From NCBI GenBank assembly GCA_965228875.1, contig OZ245843.1, positions 4,384,616 through 4,448,615 on the forward strand: 64,000 bases of DNA, given 5' to 3'. The DNA comes from Thalassobaculaceae bacterium. Its GTDB lineage: Bacteria; Pseudomonadota; Alphaproteobacteria; Thalassobaculales; Thalassobaculaceae. Positions 43,601 through 64,000 of this stretch are shown here, piece after piece; positions within the stretch are counted from its first letter, which is position 1, and each line of letters begins with the position of its first letter. Position numbers: made by a program.

Positions 43601-46600
43601 AATTCGCCCTGCTCACCGACGACGCTCGGGAGATCAGCCTCAGGCGGGCCGACGCGTTCAAGGGCGAGGTGGGCGACGTCATCGGACAGACGTTGGCATC
43701 CTTCCCTTGCAGTCGGTTGCAGGCCCGGTTCGACCCGGATAGCAACGTGATCGACGTGCGTGGCCATGTCGCCACGCAGGGTCTCGCCGAGCAGGTGTCG
43801 CCGCTGATGGCGCGGGTGACCGGGGGGTCGCTTGCGGTGACCTCCAGCGTCCAGATCCTGCCGTCCCCCCAATGCCGGGTGATGACGGCTTACGGCGCCA
43901 TGGGCATCCCCCAGTCGAGCGACCAGCTCGACGATCCACTGACCGTCGGTCAGGAAGCTCAGGCCGCAATTCTCGATTTCCGGGTCGGTGCGGTGATGGC
44001 CCTGGAGATAGAGACGCCCGACTTCCCGTCGTATATCCGCGTCGACCTGTACAGCAGCGACGGAAAGGTGCTGCATGTCGTGCCATGGCGCGGGTTCGGG
44101 CTGGAGCCCTTCGCCCCGGCGATGGCGCTGCGGGTCGGCGACGGCACCGGCGGCGGTCCGGTGCTGGAGGCGGCACCGCCGGTCGGCGTCGACGTCGCCG
44201 TCATGCTGGCGACCAGCGCGCCCCTGCCCGACGGCGAGCGACCGGTGTCCGAACCGGCGGACACCTACCAGAAATGGTTGGCGCGGAGCCTCGATGCGGC
44301 CGGCCGAAACGACCCGGAGTTCAGGGCCGAGTGGGTCTATGCACTGGTCGAGACGGTGGCTGCGAACTAAGAGCGAAGCCCGGCCGAGTCGAATTGACTC
44401 CCGGCCCCGGAAACACCACCATCCGACCTATACGGGAGGAGGCGCTCCCGGTGATTCCGAATGACATCGCAGCAACGGGCGGCCGCTCGAAGCCGGTCGC
44501 GCATGTTTCGGGGCCGGGCGTCTCATGCCGGCCGATCGACGTGAGGAGGTGGGGATGATCTGCAATCGCCGAGGATTTCGGGCAGGTGTTGTCGCGGCCG
44601 GAATCCTGTTCATGATCGGCGGCACCTTGCAGGCGGCCGACAAGAGCGTTCGGCAGTTCGGAGAGAGCGCGACCAAGTCTCAGATGCTCGACTATCTGCT
44701 GAACTCGCCGGCCCCAACAGCGGCCCCGGCGGCGGTCGATAGCGACCTGCTCAAAGGCCTGCCGGCCAGGGTCGATCCGAACAGCGTGGCGACGCGCGGC
44801 GGCATTCTCAAGCCGGAGCGCGCGACGCCGAGCGTGACGGCCCAGTCACCCTGTCCTGTGACGGACAAGGCGTTCGGTACAACCGTCAACTTCGCCGTCG
44901 GCTCCTACTATCTGGAGCCGTCGACCTTCTCGGTTCTGGGCGAGGTGGCCGACCTGATGACCGATGAGAAGCTGAAGGACTGCGCCTTCGTGGTCGAGGG
45001 ACACACCGATTCCACGGGCAATCCGGATAAGAACAAGGTCCTGTCAAAGCAGCGGGCGGAGACGGTCGTGAAGTATCTCGAGAGCCATGGCGTGGCGGAC
45101 TCGCGGATGGAACTCGAGGGCAAGGGGAGCACCGAGCCGGCGGACCCGGTCAATCCGGCGGCCGATATCAACCGGCGGGTCCAGTTCCGTTTCGTCGACC
45201 GTCAGGGCTGACGGTCTGGTCGGGCGATGGCACCACCGAGGCCGACGCGCAACGCTCAGCCCGTCGGCCTGCGGTGTCGGGTGGTCAGCGCGCCGTCCGT
45301 GAGCGTGTAAACCGCGACCTGCTCCCCGGCATCCTCCTCGGCGACGAAGCCGGCCAGGGGGCCGAAGAACGGTGTCAGGGAATCCGGTGTACCGGTCTTC
45401 AGGAAAAGGTGCAGCGCCCTCGGATCGTAGTAGCGGAAGGCGAGGCTGCGCCCGTCCTCGGTCATCACGATGTTGAATTTCCGCAGGTGACGCCGCAGCG
45501 CCGTCAGCTCGAGCGGCGACAGGATGTAGATCCCCCAGGCCTGCCCCCAGCCGTCGCGCAGGAGCCAGTCGGCCAGCAGCGACCCCTCCTCGATTTCCAT
45601 CAGGTAGGGCGCGACTTCCGCAAGATCCTCGGCCAGTTCGCCCTGGTAGAGCGAACGGACCCCCGCGCCCGTTCCCTTCAGTTTGCGGTGGATCGCGGTG
45701 TCGCGGGCCGCATCCAATGCCGCGAACAGGCGCACGCCGCCGTTCCCCGATCGGGCGTCGCGCAGGATGTCGGCGAGCAACTGGCGTCGCGCCTCGATGA
45801 TGTTGCGGGAAGGGACGCCGGCATCCGGCGTGCCGATCATGCTCATGCGCCGGCCTCCCCGCAGATCTCGCAGAACGGAGTGCCCTTGACGGCGGCCTCG
45901 CGCAGGGCCGCGATCTGGCTGACGCGCTTGCGGGTGCCGGTACCCTTCGGCACGGTCTTCGGGCTGGTCAGGTCGGTCGTCGCACCCGGCTGGCCGTCAT
46001 CGGCTGCCGCGGGCGCGTCCGGCGCCTGCGGGTTTGCGCTCAGGCTGCCCGATGAGCCGCCGCTGTTGATGAGAACCATCGGGCCCTGGATGGTCACGCC
46101 GCTGGGCCCCAGCGTGATGAAGCCCGCGCCGGCCTTGATGGTCAGCATCATCCCGGCCTCGATCATCACCTCCATGCCGGCCTTCACCGCGTAGTTCGTA
46201 CCGGCCTTGGCGTGGAATTCCTGGGCGATGTCGAGGGAGTCGATACCGCCGATCCGGGTTGACCGGTCGCCACCGACATCTTCGTGCTGGTCGCCGCCGA
46301 CCTTCTCGAACCGATCGTTGACGACGGTCTCGTGATGCTGGTCGCCCACATGGCTCCGCAGCGTCTCCTTGATCCGGAGGTCCATGTCCTTCTGGCCGTG
46401 CACGAAGATCTGCTCGCTACCGGCCTTGTCCTCGAACCGCAATTCGTTGAACCCGCCGCCGCCGGGAGAGGAGTTCGTCTTGATCGTCGAGCGGGTCTTG
46501 TGACCGGGCGGATCGTAGACCGGTTCGTTGACGGCGTTGTGGACGACCCCGGTGATTAGCGGCCGGTCGGGATCTCCCTCCAGGAACGAGACGGCGACCT

Positions 46601-61600: not shown

Positions 61601-64000
61601 AAGATGCGATTGCGCCTCGGATACGCGGAAGGCGCGGCCTCCGATGCCGGCGGGTACGATGTGCAGACCAACCTCATGTATCCGCTGTCGGCGGACCCCG
61701 AAGGGCCCAGTCTGGTGTTCGCTGTCTGGAGCGCGGAACCGATCCTCGACGGCTTCGCGCCGGTGTCGCAGCAGCGGACCGACGAGTTCCTTGCGGCGCT
61801 CCGCGCGGCTGTGGATGCGTCCAATGCGTCGGACGACGCCGCCAGGCTCTATGCCCGCACGGTGACGATCACCGTGGCCCGGTAGACGGCGCGGGTACGG
61901 GGCTAGGCAGGGGGAGGAGAAGCACGGGATGGATGCTGGCGTGTTTTCGGCCGACGCGGTGCTTCATGCCGCGCTGTATGGCACGTTCATCGTCATGATC
62001 GTTGCGATCGCCGCCAACGACTGCGCCGGCGCGGTCGCGCTGGTCTGCGTCGACGGCACGGTCGACATGCGCGCAGCGCAGGTCCTGATCGCGGTGTTCC
62101 TGGTTGTGGGCGCCGTGTTCGTCGCGCCACCCGTCCTCGATCGCCTGATTCTGCCGCTGATCGCCCTGGAGGACTTCCGCGCCGCACCCTTTGCCGGACC
62201 GACGGTCCTGTTCAGCGCCGTCGTGCCGCTGGCGCTGGCGACGGTGTTCGGCGTCCCGGTCTCCGCATCGGCTCTGGTGGTCCTGGCCGTCCTCGGGGTC
62301 ATCGTCGAGCGCGGAGGAGGCGTCGATGCCGCCGCGGCTGGCCGGCTGGCGTTCGCACTGCTGCTGCTGCCCGCCATAGCCTGCGGGGTCGGTCGAGGGT
62401 TGGCGTGGGCGTTTCGGGACCGAGCCGTTTCGGGCTCCCGGCCGCGCGATGCGCTGACCTGGGCTCTCCCGGGACTGGCGGCGTTGCTCGCCGCAGCGAC
62501 CGTCGTCGTCGTCGCGCTGCTGACGGATCTGCACGGGCCCGTCGCGCAGGTCTCGGCGATCGTCGCGGGCATCGCTGTCATCGCGGCCTTCGCGGTCGGC
62601 GGCGTGTATCTGCTGCGCATTCGCCGGTCGCCGTTCTGGGTGTCCAACGACCGTCAAGGGTTCGAGGCGGCGCATGGATCGCTGTCGCTGGCGTGCGGCG
62701 CCCTCGGCGGCCTGTTGCTCAGCGGTGTCAATGTCGGCATGGCGATTGCGCTTTTGTCGGTCCTGCTGAACGGGGGAGGCGCCGGCGTGAGCTTCGCCAG
62801 CCCGCCGCTCTGGCTCGGCCTCGGGCTGGCGTTCCTGACCGTTCTGCTGGCCGGCCATCATCTGGCGGGACGACTGGAGCGTGCCGGACTGACGCCGGAG
62901 CCGTCGCAGGCCGCGATCGGGACCATAGGCGCGTTCGTCGGCGCCGCGCTGGCGGCCGTCGTGCACGCCCCACTGCCCCCCAGCCTGACACTGGCATCCG
63001 GACAGTGCGGAGCGGCGGGTGACCTCCGCACAACGGCGCGGTGGCTCGGCATCGGACTCCTGGTCGGCCTGCTGTCCTTCGCCCTTTCCTTTGCCGTGGA
63101 TCTGGCGCTCCGCCTTCTGGCGGAGTGACGCCGAAGGGAGCTCGTTGCCATGCTGTCCGCCGCGCTCAGTCAAGTCCATCCGACCGTCGGTTTCGCCGTC
63201 CTGTTGTGTCTGGCCGCCGTGGCCGTGTGCGTGACCGCCATGCCGGTGCTCCGTGGGGCGGCGGCGGGCGTCGATCCCATGACGCTACGACGCGCGGCGC
63301 GCGCCGCGCGGGCGCCGCACCGGCCGCTGCTGTCTCTGTTCAACACGGGCCGGCGCCGGATCGTCGCCCTGGCCGGCATCGGGACGCTTGTTGCCGTGTT
63401 CGGGTTCGGCAGCCTCGGTCTGGTGGCGTTCGACAGCAGGATACGGGGTCAGAATTCGGCGATCGCCGAGCGTCACCGCCTGGAGGGCGAGATCGAGGCG
63501 GCGCGGGCGCAGACGAAGGAGGCGGAACGTCGTGCCAGCGAGGCGCTGGCGGCAAGGGACGAGGCGCATCGCGAGGAGATGCTGGACCAGGAGGCGCGCT
63601 ACCAGAAGCGGATCGAGGAGCTCAAGGCGGAACACCAGGCGGAGGTGAACAGCCTGACCCTGAAGTTCCAGGAGGACCTGGCGCGCCAGGGGGAGACCGA
63701 CGAGTTGAAGAACTCGGTCAGCAGCATGCAGATGCAGCTTCTGGAGCAGACCAACAGGACGCTGACCATCGAACTCGACCGGGCGAAGGAGATCATCCTG
63801 GATCAGGCGGCCCGGATCCGGGCGCTCGAGGAGAAGCTGGCGGAAGGCAACTGACGGACCCGTTCATGGCAGGAACACGGCGGATGGAACGCCCATGATC
63901 ATCGCCAACAGTCAGGTGACGGCCATGCGGTCGGTCGGGTGGACGGCGTGGCGGCAGCGGCATGCCGACGCCCTCGAGTCCCTGCTGCCCGAAATCGCGG

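Follow-up and report, generated by a model that had tools for sequence, protein, structure and literature searches.

A reduced type VI secretion system (T6SS) in the genome of a marine Thalassobaculaceae bacterium raises the question of how its gun crosses the cell envelope. Proteobacterial T6SS are regarded as invariably docking at, and firing through, the TssJ-TssL-TssM complex; of its components, the locus encodes TssL and, for TssM, just the cytoplasmic domain. The genes lie at positions 45256-63854 of the window, the 64,000-nucleotide stretch of contig OZ245843.1 that was analysed as a whole, and form a real, intact T6SS-type cluster that is unusually reduced. Annotation was based on Pfam and NCBIfam profile searches, with hydropathy for transmembrane (TM) segments. 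The gene row reads as follows, in window positions:

45256..45846, minus strand: DUF4123 adaptor/chaperone, 196 aa (PF13503, 103.4 bits; weak Tla1 chaperone match)
45843..47897, minus strand: VgrG spike (Phage_GPD, Phage_base_V, Gp5_trimer_C; TIGR03361, 591 bits)
48061..50571, plus strand: exported or membrane-anchored repeat protein with C-terminal caspase (C14) domain (Peptidase_C14, 41.3 bits; N-terminal hydrophobic segment)
50546..51493, plus strand: alpha/beta-hydrolase-like protein with lipoprotein-type N-terminus (Abhydrolase_1, 21.4 bits, under the cut-off)
51615..53546, plus strand: TssB-TssC fused sheath, 643 aa (VipA, VipB, VipB_2; TIGR03358, TIGR03355)
53675..54181, plus strand: Hcp tube protein (PF05638, 81.9 bits)
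54305..54793, plus strand: TssE, gp25-like (PF04965; TIGR03357, 77.3 bits)
54790..56673, plus strand: TssF (PF05947, 549 bits, profile positions 1-622 of 627)
56637..57785, plus strand: TssG (PF06996, 190 bits)
57778..59250, plus strand: TssK (PF05936, 203 bits)
59387..60409, plus strand: short TssM, 340 aa (PF14331, IcmF-related_N only; TIGR03348 positions 68-363 of 1168)
60476..61885, plus strand: TssL (DotU), 469 aa (PF09850, 65.6 bits)
61929..63128, plus strand: PiT/PHO4-like 12-helix membrane protein (PF01384, 40.6 bits, gathering score 33.7)
63150..63854, plus strand: two-TM coiled-coil protein, 234 aa (TM segments; no family above cut-off)
63895..64000, plus strand: first of several unknown genes in a row on this strand, reaching beyond the window end (ORF calls)
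This row in window numbering, plus strand: ORFs of 116 aa (from 63895 to 64245), 453-467 aa (to 65603) and 236 aa (to 66315)
66341-66817, plus strand: DUF3592 protein (47.5 bits)

All parts of a firing unit are present in the locus, namely VgrG and its DUF4123 adaptor, Hcp, a single-chain sheath and a TssE/F/G/K baseplate, and the Pfam and NCBIfam matches confirm this part of the survey's finding. Hcp, VgrG and TssE/F/G/K were matched over nearly the full profile length and above the curated cut-offs, except for Hcp in NCBIfam (51.9 bits, cut-off 58.9), which passed in Pfam. The vgrG frame is open to 48365; by inspection of start codon and ribosome-binding site the likely start is ATG 47897, for a protein of about 684 aa, and the TIGR03361 match starts at residue 167 of the long frame. 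The DUF4123 gene and the end of vgrG share 4 bp. It is uncertain whether the caspase-domain protein belongs to the T6SS; caspase, OmpA and DUF4384 proteins were seen clustered together in unrelated metagenome loci. Equally uncertain is the hydrolase-like protein, in which a hydrophobic N-terminus followed by a cysteine and a GxSxG-type motif can be read. The genes downstream from 63895 are possible cargo; the three ORFs ending at 64245, 65603 and 66315 had no Pfam or NCBIfam match.

The sheath is made from one chain. Its only gene in the locus carries three Pfam sheath domains, a single VipA (residues 10-132), VipB (208-513) and VipB_2 (526-627), as expected for the TssB-TssC fusion of 643 aa that had been described. 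The fusion is collinear with tssB and tssC, which lie side by side in locus 1, the canonical T6SS locus of this genome, and covers residues 5-429 of 432 of VipB and 9-128 of 164 of TssB in solved PDB sheath chains. In the sheath tree it forms, together with two metagenome relatives, the long separate branch noticed before (length 2.38, support 100/100). Such a natural, complete single-chain protomer is of interest for the study of sheath assembly and of recycling where no ClpV is encoded alongside.

Two proteins are left to connect this unit with the membrane. The tssM frame is open from 59372, with ATG 59387 as likely start of the 340 aa. Against TIGR03348 the product reached 121.9 bits (cut-off 388). 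In an alignment with seven full-length TssM proteins it starts after TM2 and ends three residues past the conserved motif preceding TM3; a TM segment was not detected by hydropathy, and a Walker A motif is absent. Profile coverage and hydropathy agree on the soluble IcmF-N domain without membrane helices that the survey had reported; by alignment the protein is a clean excision of exactly the cytoplasmic part that lies between TM2 and TM3. The locus has no full-length TssM, which would carry a periplasmic domain and three TM helices. Genome-wide, PF06761 had a single match, in locus 1, and the periplasmic region of Dyella-type TssM had no match anywhere in the genome.

TssL consists of a cytoplasmic domain of DotU fold (PF09850, Foldseek), one TM helix at about residues 199-221 (200-221 in the model), and a periplasmic part with a BON-like and a DUF4384-like domain, the latter an Ig-type sandwich. 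The AlphaFold2 model (pLDDT 84.9) matched TssL 6Y4R (TMt 0.78), 3U66, the BON proteins DolP and OsmY, and MG-type sandwiches in Foldseek; in the relative P0131, Pfam scored DotU, BON and DUF4384 all together. Hydropathy yields two hydrophobic stretches, which had been taken for two TM segments. The second, at 285-303, is a strand and a helix inside the well-predicted periplasmic domain of the model, therefore only one TM helix remains. The long DUF4384-like extension, which the survey listed among the features of this locus, is indeed present, but it does not set the locus apart: the same DotU-TM-BON-DUF4384 protein stands beside a full-length TssM in 71 genome loci, e.g., in Dyella. The extension is an ordinary mark of a wide T6SS clade and not special to the reduced system.

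As the survey had noted, the locus lacks TssA, TssJ and ClpV: the profile search obtained no match to these families among the called ORFs between window position 40588 and about 73900. Above the cut-offs, the whole genome holds two TssA proteins (PF06812, ImpA_N; loci 1 and 2 only), one TssJ (PF12790; 1.9436 Mb) and one ClpV (TIGR03345; 1.930 Mb), all in other loci, plus a ClpB-like match of 825 bits at 2.840 Mb; for TssA the search would miss a divergent form without ImpA_N. The canonical locus at 1.93-1.95 Mb includes TssJ, TssM and ClpV; it also contains a TssCL-like frame of 617 aa. Locus 2 (4.524-4.547 Mb), about 90 kb away, encodes a TssM-like protein of 1348 aa, TssA and, like the reduced locus, a fused sheath. 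With the missing parts present in these two loci, the reduced locus might be a satellite: its tail and baseplate would dock on a membrane complex supplied by locus 2 or by the canonical locus and use the TssA and ClpV of that system. We regard this as unlikely: a TssL and a TssM cytoplasmic domain of its own would be redundant if complexes were borrowed, and its proteins share only 22-36 % identity with those of loci 1 and 2. For its TssK, TssG and TssL, similarity to locus 2 is slight or absent, and the short TssM had no match detectable by tblastn in the locus-2 TssM.

Is the reduced state kept or is it decay? The survey had allowed for a decaying locus, and a non-functional remnant heading for loss would explain the absence of four or five canonical core functions as well as the lack of an effector gene adjoining the DUF4123 adaptor, none being seen downstream on the minus strand. 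All remaining genes, though, are full length and in frame, and their GC3 of 0.81-0.88 resembles that of neighbouring genes. Relatives of similar length were found in metagenomes: P0002, a 346-aa protein with 57 % identity to the short TssM, P0004, a 625-aa fused sheath (58 %), and P0124, a 469-aa TssL (53 %). The three share the longest-contig figure of 28,083 bp, and only these equal figures suggest one common contig. The best-conserved part of the short TssM is its last 45 residues (80 %), and between the two TssL proteins the periplasmic domain has 50 % identity against 57 % for the cytoplasmic domain. The marine metagenome runs X3 and X6 covered all 18,745 bases, with about 1.2 % substitutions in the listed pieces; one contig of 9,659 bases, reaching from hcp to the PiT-like gene, accounts for 112 of them. 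The sole indel in these listed pieces was an 11-bp intergenic insertion at 61898, none lay inside a gene. Synonymous changes prevailed with 28 of the 40 differences listed out of 371, against 12 non-synonymous ones; the listed differences lie only in VgrG, DUF4123 and the caspase gene. Because it is kept in relatives at 53-58 % identity, the reduced state appears conserved rather than a product of fresh decay, and we consider a dying remnant very unlikely.

The 12-helix PHO4-like protein and the two-helix coiled-coil protein behind tssL were recovered as the survey had given them. In PiT transporters each half carries an N-D signature motif with a role in transport. The PiT-like protein has 12 hydrophobic cores and exceeds the PF01384 gathering score as called protein, while the six-frame search gave 31.7 bits (35.7 with neighbours). 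It matched TmPiT 6L85 (E 0.014), and its Atlas neighbours were PHO4 clusters at 0.89. Aligned with 13 PiT proteins it is collinear over both halves at 17-24 % identity; here the first N-D signature is intact, as are both P-x-S motifs, and the aspartate of the second signature is absent, an alignment that is uncertain at such divergence. Since a canonical PiT of 336 bits sits elsewhere in the genome, the PiT-like protein is distinct from the housekeeping transporter. The coiled-coil protein is a two-TM hairpin with a loop (36-70) of 8 K/R against 1 D/E, followed by a proline-free coiled-coil tail of 140 aa (67 % E/K/R/Q/A/L), which is predicted to lie in the periplasm. Both genes are probably co-transcribed; they come after tssL in the same orientation, separated by 43 and 21 bp, and further same-strand genes continue after 40 bp.

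This position raises the thought that the PiT-like and coiled-coil proteins, with the periplasmic domain of TssL, act as a new anchor or conduit in place of TssJ and the TM and periplasmic parts of TssM. The tail is long enough to reach far into the periplasm, the aligned loss of the second signature aspartate would suit a protein that is not the housekeeping transporter, and both genes are free of indels in the two metagenome strains. Position is also the sole link to the machine. As had been reported, no relative was found for either protein: only the query itself was recovered among 8,000 scored candidates, and neither gene occurred in any of 89 related loci (tblastn). An origin of the coiled-coil protein as TssM remnant was rejected, with no TssM homology seen by hhalign (probability 0.3 %). 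Of the survey's proposal that the TssJ-TssM periplasmic part is missing or replaced, the first half stands; for the second, gene order by itself neither supports nor excludes a replacement by these two proteins. We judge it quite unlikely. Spelled out, the TssM/TssJ channel would have been discarded, the anchor rebuilt from TssL with its BON/Ig-like domain, a degenerate PiT-fold protein and a periplasm-spanning coiled-coil hairpin, and TssM left as a soluble baseplate adaptor, a picture that we find just as doubtful. If true, this three-protein anchor would constitute a T6SS membrane complex of a new class.

The reading we prefer, at about an even chance, makes the locus a streamlined but intact, lineage-specific derivative of a proteobacterial type-i T6SS, anchored by TssL and a soluble TssM adaptor. 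The TssM domain would still connect the baseplate, through TssK/TssG, with TssL at its DotU domain. Only TssL would hold the machine at the inner membrane, by its single helix, and fix it in the periplasm, by the BON and Ig-like domains. Lacking the TssM/TssJ conduit, tube and spike may pierce the producer's own envelope or leave via further partners. Priming would be intrinsic given the missing TssA, and sheath recycling might fall to the single ClpV of the genome or to the ClpB-like protein. The type-i systems studied cannot do without TssM/TssJ, TssA and ClpV, and a machine that lacks them may be unable to fire on its own. A conserved firing unit with TssL and cytoplasmic TssM alone would show that the channel is dispensable or replaceable in type i, or that soluble TssM has a role in baseplate docking. 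The locus is also a simple start for defining a minimal parts list of the T6SS.

With canonical type-i systems (E. coli Sci-1, P. aeruginosa H1; passages of PMC13584744) the locus shares homologous VgrG, Hcp, TssB and TssC domains, TssE/F/G/K, the DotU domain of TssL and the cytoplasmic domain of TssM. It differs by the one-chain sheath, by a TssM from which TM1-2, TM3 and everything periplasmic are missing, and by the absence of TssJ, TssA and ClpV. The closest full systems, by scores of TssF, TssG, TssK, TssM and TssL, are Dyella-type loci. These loci (n = 71; Dyella, Rhodanobacter, Thermomonas, Pigmentiphaga, Variovorax) share the DotU-TM-BON/DUF4384 form of TssL and a TssM without Walker A, whereas their TssM is full length (about 1170-1200 aa), TssA is present, TssB and TssC are separate, and a PiT-like or coiled-coil gene occurs in none. 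The gene order is TssK-TssL-TssM there and TssK-TssM(short)-TssL here. Over 21 kb, the Dyella locus L057 yielded no TssJ.

TssJ loss has precedent: clusters without tssJ are described in passages of PMC9048695 for Xanthomonas (i3) and of the review PMC13584744 for Acinetobacter. According to PMC10564176 and PMC13584744, the type-i system of Acinetobacter works without TssJ, compensated by the accessory factor TsmK, and keeps a full-length TssM, whereas in the reduced locus TssM is short and no TsmK-like gene was recognised. A natural VipA-VipB fusion, likewise from Alphaproteobacteria, is TssCL of the roseobacter T6SS1; according to Suria et al. 2022 (PMC9515649) it is an additional, much longer paralogue that has two VipA domains and a single VipB and accompanies ordinary tssB and tssC genes. 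The fusion described here is in contrast collinear with TssB plus TssC and retains the C-terminal VipB_2. A TssCL-type paralogue was rejected for it, being the sole sheath gene with a single VipA domain. From PiT/PHO4 transporters (PF01384, TmPiT 6L85) the PiT-like protein differs by sitting inside a T6SS gene row.

Contractile secretion machines without ClpV and/or the TssJLM complex have precedents in T6SS types ii (Francisella), iii (Bacteroidota) and iv (Amoebophilus). These types are separate deep lineages with baseplate and membrane proteins of their own, whereas the reduced locus is built from type-i parts. The non-canonical T6SS of Francisella is mentioned together with ClpB in PMC5481754.

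The reduced T6SS locus is an intact, conserved set of genes in a host genome that consists of a single contig of 4.96 Mb with ~69 % G+C and contains the window. Its genes were defined by open reading frames with the high third-position G+C typical of real genes and by profile searches. They fall in two groups, the DUF4123 adaptor and VgrG on the minus strand and the remainder on the plus strand.

Genes of the locus and of the downstream run, in window numbering
45256-45846, minus strand: DUF4123 adaptor (profile search)
45843-48365, minus strand: VgrG
probable start 48061, plus strand: caspase-domain protein, hydrophobic anchor at the N-terminus
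after the caspase gene, plus strand: alpha/beta-hydrolase-like protein with a lipoprotein-type N-terminus
plus strand: fused TssB-TssC, 643 aa (profile searches)
after the fused sheath, plus strand: Hcp, TssE, TssF, TssG and TssK (profile searches)
probable start 59387, plus strand: protein with IcmF-related_N only (short TssM), 340 aa
plus strand: DotU protein (TssL), 469 aa (profile searches)
plus strand: PHO4-family protein (PiT-like), 399 aa
plus strand: coiled-coil membrane protein, 234 aa
66341-66817 (6341-6817 of the downstream stretch L001), same strand as the locus: DUF3592 two-helix membrane protein
66985-68613 (L001 6985-8613), same strand as the locus: autotransporter beta-barrel protein, 542 aa

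VgrG probably has ~684 aa, since the family match starts at residue 167 and position 47897 offers an ATG with a good ribosome-binding site. Downstream of TssK the intergenic gaps measure 121-136, 66, 43 and 21 bp. Forty bp past the coiled-coil gene, same-strand genes run on beyond the window end, with three family-less ORFs, the DUF3592 protein and, after 167 bp, the autotransporter; a 467-aa ORF of this run had no match in a PDB search and scored no higher than 0.83 in Atlas. No effector gene follows the DUF4123 adaptor gene, the next gene being a convergent OmpA-family gene, and the cargo may be encoded elsewhere, e.g., among the unknown ORFs past window 63895. An Rfam search of the DNA yielded zero matches, promoter and terminator scans gave fewer matches than in shuffled sequence, and a repeat search returned nothing beyond low-identity chance pairs. 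A tRNA-Ser(cga) is located ~10 kb upstream of the locus (34589-34678), between the ribosomal L21/L27 genes and napCBA. Synteny searches against the sole genome of the same family (G395) had no match for either flanking query.

The fusion of TssB and TssC noted in the survey's finding was confirmed as complete and collinear: VipA, VipB and the C-terminal VipB_2 were matched in one chain. Compared with solved sheath chains, it covers VipB 5-429 of 432 and TssB 9-128 of 164, and it aligns as one piece with the adjacent tssB-tssC of locus 1, the canonical T6SS of the genome at 1.93-1.95 Mb. A maximum likelihood tree was calculated from 40 sequences, comprising 11 chosen rows and every fourth of the 114 unfused hits among the matches listed. 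The separate long branch of the sheath, seen previously, reappeared as a clade with the fused metagenome proteins P0004 (58 % identity) and P0005 (57 %, from a contig of 4.9 kb), with a support of 100/100 and a length of 2.38, to which long-branch warnings apply. A second clade (99/97, likewise subject to long-branch warnings) united the Dyella-type TssC with the fusion of locus 2, a T6SS outside the window, and with two further fusions. Thus, the sheath fusion arose more than once.

The short TssM was aligned with its one relative, the metagenome protein P0002, and seven full-length TssM. It begins past the TM1-TM2 hairpin of the full-length proteins, ends three residues past the conserved motif directly before TM3, and lacks the Walker A motif. 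The nearest full-length relatives, the Dyella-type TssM (30-32 %), are likewise without Walker A; two other TssM of the alignment have a standard P-loop. Of 8,000 candidates scored, P0002 (346 aa, 57 %) was the sole similar short protein. The further matches in 400 other genomes from the phylum were, with one exception, in frames of at least 712 aa; the exception was a frame of 392 aa interrupted by a TGA (E 3.7e-4). On plasmids, 178 records matched, all below 60 % identity; the 15 matches listed had 26-29 %, and those annotated were tssM genes. A metagenome scan with the alignment matched 51 stretches, with no relatives among them, and a TssM profile had no match to PDB sequences. A split-off gene for the periplasmic part of TssM was considered and rejected, the Dyella-type region having zero matches in the genome.

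Profile searches from window 40588 to ~73900 revealed no ORF matching TssA, TssJ or ClpV, in agreement with the earlier parts list. Genome-wide, two ImpA_N, one TssJ, one ClpV above cut-off and one IcmF periplasmic domain (PF06761) were counted, all located in locus 1 or locus 2. Locus 1 also has, beside a normal TssC, a frame of 617 aa that VipB matches in part (genome 1,940,865-1,941,686; L006/L007). Locus 2 (genome 4,524,000-4,547,000; L034, L036) is a further non-canonical T6SS with its own fused TssB-TssC of 820 aa with a long linker and a TssM-like protein of 1348 aa, in which IcmF-related_N was the only match. It encodes also TssA, a 301-aa short DotU, TssE/F/G/K, Hcp, VgrG, DUF2169 and pentapeptide proteins; TssJ and ClpV were not found there. 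A dependence of the studied locus on another T6SS locus appears rather unlikely.

A HMMER search of 1.84 billion representatives gave 499 relatives of TssL at E ≤0.001. Among the 150 of these matches listed, many span the full length at 440-490 aa. The metagenome protein P0124 has 469 aa and 53 % identity to TssL; it probably lies on one contig with P0002 and P0004, because the three have an equal longest-contig figure of 28,083 bp. The AlphaFold model of TssL (pLDDT 84.9) matched TssL cytoplasmic domains (6Y4R, TMt 0.78), BON proteins (DolP, OsmY) and Ig/MG-type sandwiches, and in the relative P0131 DotU, BON and DUF4384 all scored in Pfam. Two membrane helices had been assigned to TssL, but the second hydrophobic stretch sits inside a folded domain of the model, thus TssL has one. 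Nor is the long extension a special feature: the architecture is common, with 71 loci in a genome scan (Dyella, Rhodanobacter, Thermomonas, Luteimonas, Pigmentiphaga, Variovorax and others) that used smaller TssL alignments, reaching other clades and not the ~55 %-identical relative. P0131 (482 aa, DotU-BON-DUF4384; L128 4680-6128) is solitary on a high-G+C metagenome contig: it is flanked on one side by a response regulator and on the other by the gene of a tRNA-guanine transglycosylase, and 16 kb contain no further T6SS gene.

The PiT-like protein scored above the Pfam gathering cut-off for PHO4, matched TmPiT (6L85) weakly and had PHO4 clusters as nearest Atlas neighbours. Its alignment with 13 PiT proteins extends across the two halves, at identities of 17-24 %; as aligned at this low identity, the first N-D motif and the two P-x-S motifs are retained and the Asp of the second motif is absent. 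A canonical PiT is encoded elsewhere in the genome, and in 40 genomes of the class every other PF01384 match was canonical, with a main match of at least 114 bits. The coiled-coil protein has two hydrophobic helices flanking an Arg-rich loop (8 K/R versus 1 D/E) and a proline-free tail of 140 residues, which by the positive-inside rule would be periplasmic. For this protein an origin from TssM was rejected, hhalign giving a probability of 0.3 %. That neither protein has detectable relatives still holds: a word-based search found the PiT-like query alone and no relative of the coiled-coil protein, and both were absent from all 89 related loci. A replacement of the membrane complex by other proteins was considered distinctly unlikely.

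The earlier suspicion of a decaying locus was not borne out. Eleven studies, mostly marine or aquatic metagenomes, contain the stretch, with no RNA data set listed among them; run X19, putatively RNA, yielded short contigs alone and was left out as a source on expression. Two runs span all 18,745 bases, and the listed pieces have ~1.2 % substitutions. The sole indel among the listed pieces is an intergenic 11-bp insertion at window 61898, past tssL and ahead of the PiT-like gene; it is polymorphic (in runs X6 and X19, not in X3). Among the 40 differences listed of 371, which cover only the VgrG, DUF4123 and caspase genes, 28 were synonymous. The lengths conserved in relatives of 53-58 % identity, and the 80 % identity over the C-terminal 45 residues of the short TssM, argue against decay. 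A relic is very unlikely.

Directly upstream (window 40959-45211) are encoded ExbB, two ExbD, an OmpA-family protein and a TonB-like protein of 609 aa. The latter starts with a helix bearing an S-x3-H motif, continues as a long Pro/Ala-rich spacer and ends not in TonB_C but in the BON/DUF4384-type domain also present in TssL; this C-terminus (window 43660-44334) matched the TssL family profile with E 2.3e-25, pairwise BLASTP giving only E 0.053. Proteins with a DUF4384-type periplasmic domain adjoin OmpA-family proteins in all three metagenome loci L131, L135 and L138, in addition to caspase-domain proteins in L131, a WD40 protein in L138, and a Ser/Thr kinase and a full-length TssM in L135. 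The caspase gene (48061-50571) and the OmpA gene (44525-45211) may belong to a DUF4384-type module, not to the T6SS.

In studied systems, TssM connects the baseplate with the DotU domain of TssL through its cytoplasmic domain. By analogy, the short TssM may link the baseplate to the DotU domain of TssL. The machine would be anchored by TssL alone, exit from the cell would proceed without a TssM/TssJ channel, and the sheath might be recycled by the lone ClpV of the genome or by ClpB. Outside subscription-only papers, we found no report of a natural T6SS with a TssM of the cytoplasmic domain only, of a sole-copy fused T6SS sheath, or of DUF4384 in a T6SS.

The TssCL of roseobacters is an extra paralogue alongside normal tssB and tssC (PMC9515649). 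The fused sheath, complete and collinear with TssB and TssC, differs from it; the 617-aa frame of locus 1 is similar in type to this extra paralogue. In the annotated Dyella locus L057, one of the 71, the full-length TssM (11350-14859) matched IcmF-related_N alone; the periplasmic IcmF domains PF06761 and PF06744 were unmatched in this and other such loci, and TssJ and ClpV were not found within 21 kb in L057. The locus also holds a MltA-like transglycosylase. By the scores of TssF, TssG, TssK, TssM and TssL, no full system is closer to the studied locus than the Dyella-type loci. They differ from it in the order TssK-TssL(long)-TssM, a TssM of ~1170-1200 aa, the presence of TssA and separate TssB and TssC.
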